From Sulfuricurvum sp. PD_MW2 (GTDB lineage Bacteria > Campylobacterota > Campylobacteria > Campylobacterales > Sulfurimonadaceae): DNA of 64,000 bases. Positions 23,395 to 61,236 of this stretch are shown piece after piece. Numbering within the stretch: position 1 is the first letter of the stretch; the number at the start of each line of letters is the position of its first letter. The notes beneath the pieces are model-generated. The model saw nothing but the letters and a program-made list of their open reading frames with translations. It ran no database searches and was not told the origin of the DNA. The DNA lies in assembly GCF_002633015.1 (NCBI RefSeq), contig NZ_NSIU01000011.1, positions 5,184-69,183 on the forward strand, in the 5' to 3' direction. Position numbers and translations under genes: made by a program.

Positions 23395-23428
23395 ATTATA
23401 ATCACAAAATGTTGCAAGAGTATAGCAA
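23395..23428 (-). promoter_or_regulatory. TGCAAC direct-repeat promoter, site 1
   Basis: ttgctat-actc-ttgcaac, 10 nt, TATAAT; points at the sCache MCP. Confidence 0.65.
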
Positions 23429-23465
23429 CAATGGTTAAAATAAATAAAAATTCGTCATTGCGTCG

Positions 23466-23912
23466 TTATTTTAATGCTTCCAAAATGACATGATCTTCCA
23501 AATCGATCTCATCGTTTTCCAAAATCGGATCTAACGCATGCATCCCATACGGATAAGAAGATCTTGGATCACCTGTAATCAAAGGATGCCACGATGGCAA
23601 CGGCTCACCTCGATAACGGAGGCGATAAGCACACGTTTGCGGAAGCCATTCAAACTCTTTTACCCTCTCCAATGTGAGTTTCATACACCCTTCAACCTTC
23701 TGGTGACGATTGGCATAATCACTGCATAAACGACCTTCAATGTTATAACAGCGACATGCAACACGAGTAAGATAGATTTCATCATCCTCTTCGTCCTGCA
23801 GTCGATGCAAACAACATAATCCGCATCCATCACATAATAATTCCCATTCCTGAGTTGTTAATTCTTCGAGTTTTTTTGTTTCCCAAAACGGGGCAGTAGT
23901 AGTATTTTCCAT
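23466..23912 (-). CDS. ycgN: YcgN/UPF0260 cysteine-cluster protein
   Basis: WELLCDGCGLCC, TRVAC, CSDYANR, WLPQTCAYR, WHPL. Confidence 0.88.
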   Translation of the reverse strand: MENTTTAPFWETKKLEELTTQEWELLCDGCGLCCLHRLQDEEDDEIYLTRVACRCYNIEGRLCSDYANRHQKVEGCMKLTLERVKEFEWLPQTCAYRLRYRGEPLPSWHPLITGDPRSSYPYGMHALDPILENDEIDLEDHVILEALK

Positions 23913-23997
23913 AACCGAAAAATAGCATATTTAGGGTTAAAACCGAGTATTTAGCCTATTATTTGGGTATGATGAGGATACTAAAAAAGGATATCGC

Positions 23998-24456
23998 ATG
24001 ACAACTGAACAACCATTGGATGAACTTCTGCGCGAATGTGCAAACTCGGTAGGAGGAAAAAACTTTTTCCTCACCCTCGCCGAAACGATCCGATCTACCC
24101 GCGAGGGGATTCTCGTCGGTGAGAAAAAACAGATTAACTACTCCAGCGGAACAATGACATGGAACAAAACGCTTCATGCCGACAACTGGAGATTATTGAT
24201 CGAATCAGCCAAAGTGCGCACTAAAGACGGCAATATTTTGCTCCCGGTAGAAGACAAACGACACAAAAACATCCTCAACATGATCCGAACCCTTAAACCG
24301 CTAACCTTTACCGTAAAACCAAACAACAGCGAGGATGGAGAGGGATTTAGTTTTGCCGCGCTTGAAGTGATCGATGAGAAAACAACACGGGTTTCTCCGC
24401 TGTTCAAAGCGATGTTTACGATGCCGATCGAGGTATTAAAAAAGAATATGGGATAA
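23998..24456 (+). CDS. Hypothetical protein
   Basis: 152 aa ORF after an AAGGA SD; no family recognised. Confidence 0.7.
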   Translation: MTTEQPLDELLRECANSVGGKNFFLTLAETIRSTREGILVGEKKQINYSSGTMTWNKTLHADNWRLLIESAKVRTKDGNILLPVEDKRHKNILNMIRTLKPLTFTVKPNNSEDGEGFSFAALEVIDEKTTRVSPLFKAMFTMPIEVLKKNMG

Positions 24457-24486
24457 AAAAAGGGATTGTTTTTAAGACGAAAGAGG

Positions 24487-24563
24487 TGGAGCGGGAAACG
24501 AGACTCGAACTCGCGACATTCAGCTTGGAAGGCTGACGCTCTAGCCAACTGAGCTACTCCCGC
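24487..24563 (-). tRNA. tRNA-Gly (TCC)
   Basis: GCGGGAG acceptor, AGCTCAGTTGG D-arm, CAGC-CTTCCAA-GCTG anticodon arm, GTTCGAGTC T-loop, encoded CCA. Confidence 0.97.
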
Positions 24564-24608
24564 ATCACAAGTCGAATTTTATCACTCATACCCTTAAAAG
24601 TTCATTTA

Positions 24609-57999: not shown

Positions 58000-58005
58000 C
58001 TACAC

Positions 58006-59229
58006 TCACACATTTTCCGAAACGATTGCCCATCGGTAACAGCTCTCAAGATTCTGCCGTACAATTTCGACGATAGAACCGTCCAGTTTTAGATCATCTC
58101 TCATCGAATCCAAAACCCCTAATGCCGCTTCAGCACTCATCCCCATTCGATAGGGGCGATCTTGAACCAATGCCTGAAAGATATCGGCTATCGCCAAGAT
58201 TCTGGCCTCTGTCGGGATCTGATCACCATGCAAATGATAAGGGTAGCCTTTGGCATCCAATGTCTCATGATGCATCGAAGCGATTTGCGCTATTTCATGA
58301 AATCCTTTGATCTTTCGAAGAATCATATTGGAATCAAACCCGTGGCGATTCATTTGAGAGCGTTCCTCTTCGTTCAACGGACCCGCTTTGTGCAAAATAG
58401 CATCCGCAACTCGGAGTTTTCCCAAATCATGGAAGAATGCCGCTAATTCGATTCTCTCTTGCTGACGTTCACTCAGCCCGTACAATCCAGACAAATGACG
58501 CGCCAATGCCGCAACGCCATAGGTATGTTTCGACGTAAAAGGACTTTTTGCATCAACAACATCCGCAAACATCATCGCAACGCTTTTTAGATCATCAAAC
58601 AGTACGTCTGAGGGTTCAGTCAGATTGATCCACTCATCATAATACCCTTCCAGCGACTCAATCTCCAAATAATACCAAAACGAATCCGCCAACGATACCT
58701 CTACAAATGCATCCACCAATTCAGGAGCAAACATCTCACCGGCATATTTTTGAATCGTTGCACGTACATTGGCTTTTTCTTGCAATGTTGTGGAACCCAG
58801 CTGAACACGCAGCGCATCAACACGGTCGGTCAAATAGATAAGATTAGCCTCTTCTTTGGTTTCAAGAGGGAGCGATGAAGATAATTCATCCCAATGGGTA
58901 TGATGGTATAAAATGACATCGGTATAATCGGTATAAAACGGGACTTTTTTCAGAAGGGAAGCACCTCTAATGCAATGGGTTTGCGAGTTATCCCAATCGA
59001 GTTCGCTCACCAAATGATGATGGACATCGGTCGATGATACACCGCAATCATGAAGCATGCCGATCAAAAGGATTCTATCGATCCGCTCGGATGACCACCC
59101 TAAGCGTTTTGCGACTTCGGCAGACATATACCCTACCCGCTTTCCGTGCATGGTATCATCTATTCCGACATAATCAAGCGCTTCGGATAAAGCATACGTT
59201 ACCTCTCTAAAATTCAGAACGTATTTCAT
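58006..59229 (-). CDS. Tandem HD / HD-GYP phosphohydrolase
   Basis: LHDCG...HHTHWD and FHDLGK...HHETLDAKGYP. Confidence 0.9.
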   Translation of the reverse strand: MKYVLNFREVTYALSEALDYVGIDDTMHGKRVGYMSAEVAKRLGWSSERIDRILLIGMLHDCGVSSTDVHHHLVSELDWDNSQTHCIRGASLLKKVPFYTDYTDVILYHHTHWDELSSSLPLETKEEANLIYLTDRVDALRVQLGSTTLQEKANVRATIQKYAGEMFAPELVDAFVEVSLADSFWYYLEIESLEGYYDEWINLTEPSDVLFDDLKSVAMMFADVVDAKSPFTSKHTYGVAALARHLSGLYGLSERQQERIELAAFFHDLGKLRVADAILHKAGPLNEEERSQMNRHGFDSNMILRKIKGFHEIAQIASMHHETLDAKGYPYHLHGDQIPTEARILAIADIFQALVQDRPYRMGMSAEAALGVLDSMRDDLKLDGSIVEIVRQNLESCYRWAIVSENV

Positions 59230-59272
59230 CCCCTACCCTTATGATCGATTTTTTGATTATTCACATACAACA

Positions 59273-60709
59273 TTAATGTGTAGTATTTGCCGCTTCATTC
59301 AACATCGTATCAAGCTGCTTGAATAACTCATCCGATGATTTTTCCATTCGGCTGAATTTTTCAATAATCAACTCTCGATTATCTCCGAGTCTCGACATAT
59401 CCGCGATCACATCACGAATCTCACCGACGATATCATGGACATCTTTGTGCGGTTTGAGCAACCCTTTGTACGAACTGTATTGTCCAAAATGGCTTTGCCC
59501 CTCATTGCCCTCATACCATTTGCCCAAACGGCAATTATGGTGATCGACATGGTTTCCATGTACGTGGCGGGTAAATATCGCATTATAGGTACCGTTTTTG
59601 AAGAGCATATGGTCGATTTTTGCCAAAATAACAAATGCGGTGGATTCGATGTCGCGAACGACTGACGCTGTTTGAAGGGCATCGTTGTTGAATACATGAA
59701 TCGTCTCATCAAATTTTTGGATCAACGCACTTGAACGAAGGGCAATTTCATTGATCGATTCCGATCCCGCTTGAATCGAGTTGGTCTCTTGCTGCAACGT
59801 TTGAATCGCGATTGAAATCTCTCCCGTTGCACTTTGGGTTTTTTCCGCCAATTTTCGAACTTCATCGGCAACAACGGCAAATCCGCGTCCGTGTTCTCCG
59901 GCACGCGCCGCTTCGATCGCTGCGTTCAACGCCAAAAGGTTGGTTTGATCAGCAATGTCTTTGATCAAATTGACAACCGAGTTAATGTCATTCGCACGGG
60001 AACTAAGCGCATTAATCGCACCGTTTGAATCGACGACCAGTTCGCTCAATGCCGAAAGATTTTGACTGACTTCTCCGATTTCATGTACCGTTTCAGATGA
60101 GTGTGCCGCAGTATTCTGTGAAATAGATGAAATATTCGATAGATTTTGGATCGTTGTCACCAAATCTTTTTGAATAACGTCCAATCCTCCCGTAGAGCGG
60201 CTGATCTCAGCGAGTTTGCTATCCAACTCGGAGAGTTTCAGTGCTTCGTGGCTCGCTCTCATTTTGTAAACGTTTTGGTTGATATACTCCGCAGAGCGTT
60301 TGAAGGTCCCTTTTAATCCCATATCTTGAACCGTTCGGTAATAGCGGTCTTGACTCAACGCTTCGATAACGGCGTACGTATCACGCATGTATACTTCGAG
60401 CTGATCGATCATGTTGTTCGTATTCCAACACAATGCACGAAGTTCACCGTGTTCATCGATATTGGTGATGCGCGATTCCATATGTCCGTGTTCAAGCTCT
60501 TTCATCGTTTCGGCTACGTTATGAATCGTCGCTTGTACTTTTCGGATATTGACGGATATTGCCCACGCAATCGCAAAATTGACCAAATTCAAAACACGGA
60601 TCCAGTCAAATCCGATCGTAATGACCTCGATCACGAGAGCCACCATAAATACAATAATTGAAATAATATTTAAATACTGGAGTTTAGAGAGAGAGGATAA
60701 ATTCTTCAT
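59273..60709 (-). CDS. CetA/Aer-like membrane-anchored MCP with C-terminal CZB domain
   Basis: Two TM with a very short loop, [24 protein letters not shown]...CRLGKWY...HKDVH. Confidence 0.92.
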
Positions 60710-61178
60710 AAGAGACCTTTCGTTGATTTAAAAATTTTCCAAGCGCTTCTTCCCCGGCTCTGATCCCACCGCGTCGCTCCGCTTCCAACAACGAACGATA
60801 GATCGGTTTAATCTGATCCAATGCGCTATGGGTCGGTTTGCGTCGAACGGAGTGGTAGGCGATCAATTGATTTTGATCGTTCATACTTGGTGTAACGTGC
60901 GCCATAACCCAATAATAATTCTCTTGCTTTGTCTTATTGAGGACATATGCAAATACTTCTTCTTTGTTTTTGATTTTGTCCCATAAAAACTTGAAGACAC
61001 TGGCTGGCATATCTGGATGACGAAGAATATTATGCGGTTTTCCCAATAACTCAGATTCCGTATAGCCCGACATGGAAATAAATACTTCGTTACCGTAAAT
61101 AATTTTTCCGGCTAAATCGGTCTTTGAGACGATAAACTCTTTTTCATCAAACGTCAGCTCCATTCCTGCCATATGCAC
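60684..61178 (-). CDS. Stand-alone Aer-type PAS protein (CetB-like)
   Basis: [32 protein letters not shown]. Confidence 0.9.
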
Positions 61179-61202
61179 TCACCTTATATATCATTTGTTG
61201 AA

Positions 61203-61236
61203 ATTATGAATGGTTAGTGTTGCATTTGTGTGGCAA
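61203..61236 (-). promoter_or_regulatory. TGCAAC direct-repeat promoter, site 10
   Basis: ttgccac-acaa-atgcaac, 10 nt, CATAAT. Confidence 0.72.

Follow-up and report, generated by a model that had tools for sequence, protein, structure and literature searches.

In a 64,000-nt stretch of the genome of Sulfuricurvum sp. PD_MW2 (contig NZ_NSIU01000011.1, positions 5,184 to 69,183 of the forward strand), referred to below as the window, chemotaxis and other signaling genes are preceded by a common promoter element. It consists of an 18-mer with the heptamer TTGCAAC at positions 1-7 and again at positions 12-18, i.e. with an 11-bp period, and of a hexamer of the form xAxxxT that stands exactly 10 nt 3' of the 18-mer in 11 out of 11 sites. 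We consider it rather probable, judging from sequence, that a dimer of an OmpR/PhoB-family response regulator, the product of the gene at 52422-53102, binds to the 18-mer; it would activate sigma-70 promoters in the class II manner of a pho box and would regulate its own gene.

Sites in the window

Ten of the sites had been pointed out in a sequence-only reading of this DNA, which described them by the consensus wTGCAAC-N4-wTGCmAC, and all ten are present. The exact consensus matches the window four times and does not occur in any of 100 dinucleotide-preserving shuffles; allowing up to two mismatches raises the number of matches to 15, including all ten sites, whereas the shuffles yield 3.5 on average and 9 at most. 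A weight matrix built from the ten sites gives them scores of 23.5-31.9 bits in a scan of the window. The same scan revealed an eleventh site at 52358-52375, outside the training set, which scores 20.8 bits and has TACAAT at +10; beyond these eleven, the best position in the window reaches at most 16.2 bits.

The 18-mers start at 29650, 33426, 46734, 48258 and 52358 on the + strand, and span 23411-28, 40557-74, 43044-61, 44835-52, 46647-64 and 61219-36 on the - strand. The starts given earlier are right for the + strand and 2 nt too low for the - strand, where the conserved AC/AT after the second repeat had been included. The other positional claims of the sequence-only reading hold: DNA outside open reading frames (ORFs) of at least 120 aa, which makes up 5.3% of the window, contains all ten noted sites, each copy faces the adjacent gene, and each of the ten listed -10-like hexamers was given correctly together with its spacing. 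The eleventh site also points toward the next gene, and lies within the final codons of the gene for a hybrid kinase, 46 nt 5' of the start codon of the regulator. Written in full, the two 11-bp units read TTGCAACAwAC and TTGCAACACTA. Relative to the predicted transcription start the repeat occupies -40 to -23, and the sequence logo of the sites shows nothing resembling TTGACA at the -35 position, where the bases are ACAwAC.

Domain assignment with Pfam bears out the list of targets proposed earlier. The site-bearing loci include five genes for methyl-accepting chemotaxis proteins (MCPs), three of which follow a small PAS gene, as well as the che operon, a POTRA gene, a WD40-propeller/REC operon, a gene for a receiver protein termed here REC-480, and a kinase/GGDEF-EAL operon that encodes the regulator. 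The matrix scan of the window found no site at the GGDEF, HD-GYP and hybrid-kinase genes located at 1-21 kb, at the REC-REC-GGDEF gene at 28255 or at the ODP/REC-PilZ operon; the motif is no general mark of signaling genes. The flanking DNA of the same organism (8 kb on the left side, 6.7 kb on the right) contains no further site. It includes a HAMP-MCP gene (L266:14545-16163, about 0.2-1.8 kb left of the window) without a box, so not every chemoreceptor of this genome belongs to the regulon; this gene has a perfect first half-site (TTGCAACATAC) and a degenerate second one, 20 nt before its GTG start.

Conservation in Sulfurimonadaceae

We scanned about 185,000 species genomes with a strict 20-base pattern; the scan is not exhaustive, as it missed known matches in S. 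marina and S. gotlandica, and the genome to which the window belongs was not among its results either. It yielded at least 115 stretches, of which 74 are in Sulfurimonas, Sulfuricurvum, or metagenome-assembled genomes (MAGs) labeled 'Helicobacteraceae' or 'Campylobacterales', often with several per genome. The remaining 41 are singletons scattered across unrelated phyla, and by our own arithmetic about 35 of that kind would be expected by chance.

The scan of relatives with the weight matrix, which had been suggested as a check, was carried out on 79 Sulfurimonadaceae loci (514 kb), and both the motif and its spacing recur there. The set comprises 139 unique related sites, with xAxxxT at exactly +10 in 137 of them. 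When all 147 hits are considered, TAnnnT is found at +10 in 100 and at any other offset in no more than 19, while chance matches in other taxa and in viral contigs have a hexamer at +10 in only 7/47 and 13/90 cases (about 15%). Nor is the motif equally common inside coding sequences: 124 of the 139 related sites are outside long ORFs, although ORFs cover 85% of the bases.

The logo of the family reads TTGCAACAwACTTGCAACACTA-N6-(tg)n-TAtAAT, with information near zero elsewhere; its positions 1-20 are biased by the search pattern, while positions 21-34, which include the -10 box, are free of this bias. The TGC.AC core is invariant across 138 sites, in 137 of the 138 the second base of the hexamer is A and the sixth is T, and about half of the sites have G at -14. 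When four orthologous che promoters are aligned, the sole invariant block consists of the box and the -10 hexamer. The GC content of the motif-bearing loci ranges from 30 to 56%, and hence base composition does not explain the motif.

One MAG has at least 21 sites in about 70 kb of retrieved DNA. Among the 108 distinct genes that come first downstream of a site, Pfam recognizes REC in 21, the MCP signaling domain in 18, PAS in 11, HATPase_c in 8, CZB in 8, EAL in 6, a WD40 propeller in 5, Trans_reg_C in 4 and POTRA in 3. From this density and these genes it follows that the regulon is large and overwhelmingly sensory. The gene order of the regulator operon is kept in S. marina, S. gotlandica GD1 and Sulfuricurvum sp. 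IAE1, and in all three a box with its +10 hexamer stands directly 5' of the regulator gene and of the neighboring operons.

The candidate regulator

The protein encoded at 52422..53102 (+ strand) is a 226-aa response regulator of the OmpR/PhoB family, in which Pfam identifies Response_reg (8.6e-22) and Trans_reg_C (3.9e-12); according to the Pfam scan it is the only protein of the cluster with a recognized DNA-binding domain. Its phospho-acceptor pocket is canonical (E7/D8, D51, S79, K101). The recognition helix is STIRSLVNRVRSKLKE, and the segment STIRSLVNR(V/L)RxKLKE is invariant among orthologues of 61-100% identity, while the helix differs in a 24%-identical paralogue. The protein does not reach any named NCBIfam subfamily (best score 99 bits against cut-offs of at least 250). 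Its homologues point to a Sulfuricurvum-like source organism within the Sulfurimonadaceae.

The regulator operon (48290..55858, + strand) encodes a soluble kinase, a REC-GGDEF-EAL protein, a REC-kinase, the regulator, a second REC-GGDEF-EAL protein and another soluble kinase, and no transmembrane segment is predicted in any of its three kinases. In relatives the first gene codes for a soluble histidine kinase with a length of 389-393 aa, but in the window (48290-49481) it is distributed over two reading frames: 48326-48709 corresponds to residues 8-137, and the next frame continues with residues 136-379 at 48705-49448. Either the gene carries a genuine frameshift, or the assembly is wrong near 48705.

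We scored 79 metagenomic loci, retrieved with an alignment of the regulator, and grouped them by the identity of the homologue. At homologues of 54-88% identity the motif is present 23-49 nt 5' of the start codon in 31 of 35 loci, usually with TACAAT, and it is upstream of none of the 44 homologues of 47% identity or less. At least one strong site anywhere in the locus is found in 32/35 and 1/44 cases, respectively. The motif is thus tied to the orthologue group of the regulator. An 11-bp direct repeat overlapping the -35 region is the signature site of the OmpR/PhoB family, as in the case of PhoB and the pho box. The suggestion of the sequence-only reading that an activator of this family takes the place of the -35 element gains support from the repeat period, the +10 spacing, the presence of such a regulator in the cluster and the motif 5' of its orthologues. 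We infer both the binding by the 52422 protein and activation rather than repression.

Several observations weigh against the assignment of the box to this protein. The internal site is decayed in four of the orthologue loci. The split between 54% and 47% identity coincides with taxonomy, so that the same protein and the same lineage are inseparable in this comparison. A motif 5' of the regulator gene proves membership in the regulon only, and not binding by the gene product. There are other OmpR-family regulators in these genomes, including in S. marina the 24%-identical paralogue, 8 kb away. Finally, a -35 element is lacking in Campylobacterota promoters anyway, which makes its replacement less diagnostic than it would be in E. 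coli.

These points leave room for an activator site of the same kind with another binder, i.e. an OmpR-family regulator encoded elsewhere, or one of the receiver proteins REC-480 (46812-48254) and REC-339 (31833-32852), in which case the 52422 regulator would be merely a target; we regard this as possible, though unlikely. Each of the two receiver genes stands behind a box, both families are lineage-wide with many paralogues, and their C-terminal domains have no Pfam or NCBIfam match; moreover, a placement that looks like autoregulation is no proof of binding. On the other hand, the model of REC-339 suggests a REC domain followed by a long helix and a helical bundle, and that of REC-480 suggests REC, an alpha/beta domain, a disordered linker, a helical bundle and an acidic DDIFDF tail. 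Fold searches against the PDB gave receiver hits and no winged-helix or helix-turn-helix hits, although in both searches the receiver domain dominated the outcome. Winged-helix proteins of the OmpR/PhoB family typically recognize tandem direct repeats of 11 bp, and the motif follows one orthologue group of these. REC-480 itself represents a large Sulfurimonadaceae-specific family with many paralogues (478 hits), and the fold search ranked the Leptospira response regulator LvrC (9qih) first for it.

If the 52422 protein is the activator, one or more of the soluble kinases of its own operon would phosphorylate it on D51. The phosphorylated dimer would then bind head to tail on one face of the DNA, from -40 to -23, and recruit or position the sigma-70 (RpoD) polymerase at weak promoters that have only (tg)nTAtAAT, with transcription predicted to start about 7 nt after the -10 box, which is 23-24 nt after the 18-mer. 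Positive autoregulation would come from the operon promoter (48258) and from the internal promoter (52358). The regulon in the window would comprise the full che operon, five chemoreceptors (three with a small PAS protein, CetA/CetB-like), cyclic di-GMP (c-di-GMP) enzymes, kinases and receiver proteins. As none of the three operon kinases has a predicted membrane segment, the input signal is probably cytoplasmic, and the PAS, CZB and neighboring ODP proteins may point to redox or oxidant sensing downstream.

Promoter type

The sigma-70 box of Campylobacterota is gnTAnaAT, without a -35 element, and in C. jejuni it is located 4-8 nt upstream of the start (PMC3847290). The -10 logo of our sites matches this box. 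In five soluble-kinase genes (window 48299, L096:1970, L111:2987, L138:2703 and L181:7608) an ATG is found 6-7 nt after the hexamer, and no start codon is any closer to it. For the regulator operon, whose ATG at 48299 is only 7 nt after the -10 box, the first mRNA is probably leaderless, and the positions of the five kinase ATGs fit leaderless transcripts starting where the -10 box predicts.

A promoter that works without a -35 element, as the sigma-70 promoters of Campylobacterota do (PMC3847290), could also be the target of a repressor: a protein sitting at -40 to -23 could hinder the polymerase, and the regulator would then occlude promoters composed of a -10 box only. We find this improbable. 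An operator needs no spacing that is exact to a single base, yet such spacing is kept in 137 of the 139 related sites. Furthermore, many of the hexamers are weak (e.g. CAAAAT, GATACT, TAGGAT, AACAAT) and the TG extension is present in only about half of the sites, as expected if the promoters depend on an activator, and the geometry equals that of PhoB-activated promoters.

The likeness of the 18-mer to sigma-54 promoters, which appears when the two are aligned base for base, was absent from the sequence-only reading. The sigma-54 consensus is TGGCACG-N4-TTGCW, and 13 of its 16 positions agree with our motif; the TGC/GC elements, with their GC dinucleotides 11 bp apart, are in an identical register, and a fixed distance to an element further downstream is a common feature of promoters read by a single holoenzyme. 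That the 18-mer is the promoter of an alternative sigma factor, either a diverged sigma-54 -24/-12 element or a -35 of the extracytoplasmic function (ECF) type, is nevertheless highly improbable. The GG dinucleotide is present in 0 of 138 sites, with T at position 2 in 137 of them, whereas the sigma-54 sites of C. jejuni (GGaa-N6-tTGCTt) keep it (PMC3847290). In contrast to sigma-54 promoters, which need no TAnnnT and whose start would fall within the spacer, a constant sigma-70 -10 box stands 10 nt further on and is conserved in 99% of the sites. No Sigma54_activat domain, and thus no enhancer-binding protein, was found among the window proteins scanned. For these three reasons we rejected the sigma-54 reading, and a sigma-28 reading was rejected as well. 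As to an ECF-type -35, the usual spacer measures 15-19 nt, whereas the half-sites are separated from the hexamer by 10 or 21 nt, so neither half-site serves as the -35 element of a sigma-70-family factor.

The window contains one good match to the sigma-54 -24/-12 element with GG, TGGCAACCTATTTGCAGC at 4078-4095 (- strand), which lies on the sense strand inside the NMT1/SBP-GGDEF gene 2117-4384; it has no proper +10 hexamer and is probably due to chance.

Repeats containing the box or its half-site

That the copies are a dispersed repeat, remnants of a mobile element or chance matches with no regulatory role is hardly credible: in some Sulfurimonas MAGs the box does head a multi-copy element of about 450 nt, so some copies have spread with a repeat, but flanks are unrelated in the window and at most related sites, with information near zero outside the box and the -10 hexamer, orthologous promoters keep the site while the neighboring bases diverge, and the sites are oriented, intergenic and far more frequent than expected by chance.

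The ~450-nt element occurs in several Sulfurimonas and 'Helicobacteraceae' MAGs, with 74-92% identity between full-length copies (L131:6131-6600, L133:1162-1636, L110:293-678, L107:1779-2104, and at least 15 other loci). Following the box that heads it, the element contains a second TGnTATAAT box, a tiny ORF (MLHKQIILAAH...) in a non-conserved frame, an AT-rich hairpin and a GAGAGAGA tract, and it stands 5' of unrelated genes, such as those for porin-like proteins and MCPs. Rfam contains no family that matches it, and no copy is present in the window. The element might represent a long leader with a regulatory role, or else a repeat that carries a promoter.

TGCAAC repeats were also found in a group of related viral contigs from IMG/VR with a GC content of about 0.40 (L008, L024, L027, L028, L029, L035, L047, L056, L059 and L066). 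These have five repeats with 10-11-bp spacing (ATGCAACATACTTGCAACACCAATGCAACAAAGTGCAACATTTTTGCAAC) and no -10 box at the position that it has in Sulfurimonadaceae. The viral array may be an iteron or origin, and it shares only the half-site with the promoters described here.

Individual promoters and their genes

In each of the following promoters the 18-mer is separated by 10 nt from the hexamer, and the coordinates include both elements. Promoter 1 (TTGCTATACTCTTGCAAC, TATAAT; 23395..23428, - strand) is the weakest of the ten, with 23.5 bits, and is predicted to drive the sCache-MCP gene 21736-23382. Promoter 2 (TTGCAACACACTTGCGAC, AATAAT; 29650..29683, + strand), whose orthologous site is L138:7274, would serve a predicted operon of the WD40-propeller gene (29720-31843), the REC-339 gene (31833-32852) and a gene for a 185-aa protein. 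The next one, Promoter 3 (TTGCAACATACTTGCCAC, TACACT; 33426..33459, + strand; orthologous site L138:3496), is the predicted promoter of the POTRA-domain gene 33492-34109.

The che operon (34158-40513), which according to Pfam encodes a 285-aa protein without an assigned function, CheY, CheA, CheW, CheR, CheD and CheB in this order, is predicted to be driven by Promoter 4 (TTGCCACAAACTTGCAAC, GATACT; 40541..40574, - strand). The three chemoreceptor promoters that follow are all on the same strand: Promoter 5 (CTGCAACACAAATGCAAC, TATCCT; 43028..43061, - strand) presumably drives the MCP-CZB gene 40656-42983; the predicted targets of Promoter 6 (ATGCAACACATATGCAAC, TATTAT; 44819..44852, - strand) are a PAS gene (44386-44787) and a soluble MCP (43123-44376); and those of Promoter 7 (TTGCAACGTATTTGCAAC, TAGGAT; 46631..46664, - strand) are a PAS gene (46182-46562), a gene for a 151-aa protein and another soluble MCP (44904-45791).

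On the opposite strand, Promoter 8 (TTGCAACACAGTTGAAAC, TAAAAT; 46734..46767, + strand) is predicted to drive the REC-480 gene 46812-48254, which encodes a receiver and domains of no known type, and Promoter 9 (again TTGCAACATACTTGCCAC, with TATAGT; 48258..48291, + strand) the regulator operon. For Promoter 10 (TTGCCACACAAATGCAAC, CATAAT; 61203..61236, - strand) we predict four targets: a PAS gene (60684-61178), an MCP-CZB gene (59273-60709), an HD-GYP gene (58006-59229) and a dCache kinase gene (55855-57999). Promoter 11 (ATGCGACGCTCTTGCAAC, TACAAT; 52358..52391, + strand), absent from the earlier list, would be an internal promoter in the 3' end of the hybrid kinase gene; it is conserved in L001, L002, L004 and L083, as well as in the 31 of 35 metagenomic orthologue loci mentioned above.

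In the same organism, a type I restriction-modification system (HsdS, an FRG-domain protein and HsdR; L267:1-4990) is located to the right of the window, at a distance of about 1.7-6.7 kb from its end. In run SRR8043688 the Logan contigs are interrupted at the equivalents of about 24.5 kb and 43.8 kb of the window, so the window derives from another assembly, which is more contiguous.

Implications for the biology of Sulfurimonadaceae

At sulfidic-oxic interfaces, such as those of groundwater, pelagic redoxclines and vents, the sulfur-oxidizing genera Sulfurimonas and Sulfuricurvum are dominant, and positioning themselves within gradients is how they live there. Gene regulation in these genera is barely known, and SulR, described in 2026, is the only characterized two-component regulator of the family that we found. 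The motif provides a precise and testable map of co-regulated chemoreceptors, che genes and c-di-GMP enzymes, together with a candidate for the regulator, and any Sulfurimonadaceae genome or metagenome can be searched for it. If our reading is true, the transcription of chemoreceptors and che genes is under a dedicated two-component system and not under the flagellar cascade.

A wider interpretation, which we put forward only tentatively and with some doubt, is that a soluble phosphorelay and an OmpR-type regulator form a lineage-wide master switch for an alternative sensory apparatus, comprising the che pathway, CetAB-like and CZB receptors, c-di-GMP enzymes and dozens of promoters per genome, independently of the sigma-28/sigma-54 hierarchy of the flagellum; in some Sulfurimonas lineages the regulon might also be growing by means of the ~450-nt element, acting as a promoter cassette in front of new genes.

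Comparison with known systems

The pho box of E. coli, CTGTCAT-N4-CTGTCAT, is bound by PhoB and located 10 bp upstream of the -10 box. It shares with our motif the two 7-bp direct repeats, the 11-bp period, the replacement of the -35 element and the 10-bp distance, and in both cases an OmpR/PhoB-family regulator is encoded nearby and autoregulated (as predicted here). The two systems differ in the half-site, which is TTGCAAC in the window, as had been noted in the sequence-only reading, and in the targets, which are sensory (che, MCP, PAS, c-di-GMP) and not involved in phosphate acquisition. They differ also in the regulator, which scores 62 bits against the PhoB equivalog cut-off of 296, and in the kinases, which are soluble and not PhoR-like. 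A pho box proper, i.e. a PhoB/PhosR regulon, was rejected on account of the lack of CTGTCAT-type half-sites and of phosphate-acquisition targets, and of the score of the regulator below the equivalog cut-off.

PhosR of C. jejuni, with its pho box, and other OmpR-type regulators of Campylobacterota (CosR, RacR, HP1043) resemble our candidate in phylum, regulator family and the use of promoters without a -35 element; we know of no TTGCAAC-like sequence among their published sites. In three units of the regulon an MCP devoid of a sensor domain is paired with a small stand-alone PAS protein, similarly to the bipartite energy-taxis receptors CetA/CetB of C. jejuni, but here the PAS gene comes first. 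To our knowledge, transcription of cetAB from a dedicated regulator box has not been described.

Another system with such a regulator is SulR/SulS of Sulfurimonas hydrogeniphila, in which the OmpR-family SulR binds two direct repeats 5' of the -10 box, with a footprint from -51 to -17 (PMC12936845). Our system has in common with it the family of the regulator, the bacterial family and the direct repeats upstream of the -10 box, but differs in the motif and in the regulon: the SulR box has the sequence TTTAYATTTAKKAGWTACAMTTA, with TTACA repeats, and governs sox genes (PMC12936845). It was rejected as an identity for our motif, as its sequence differs and no sox genes are downstream of our sites. 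A published description of the motif or of the regulon was not found in the literature that we covered, mostly outside subscription journals, where matches to the sequence string were primers only. The motif, which the sequence-only reading had not recognized, is neither the E. coli pho box nor the SulR box, and its candidate regulator belongs to no named NCBIfam family; what we describe is a new box, regulator and regulon within a well-known, OmpR/PhoB-type kind of system.

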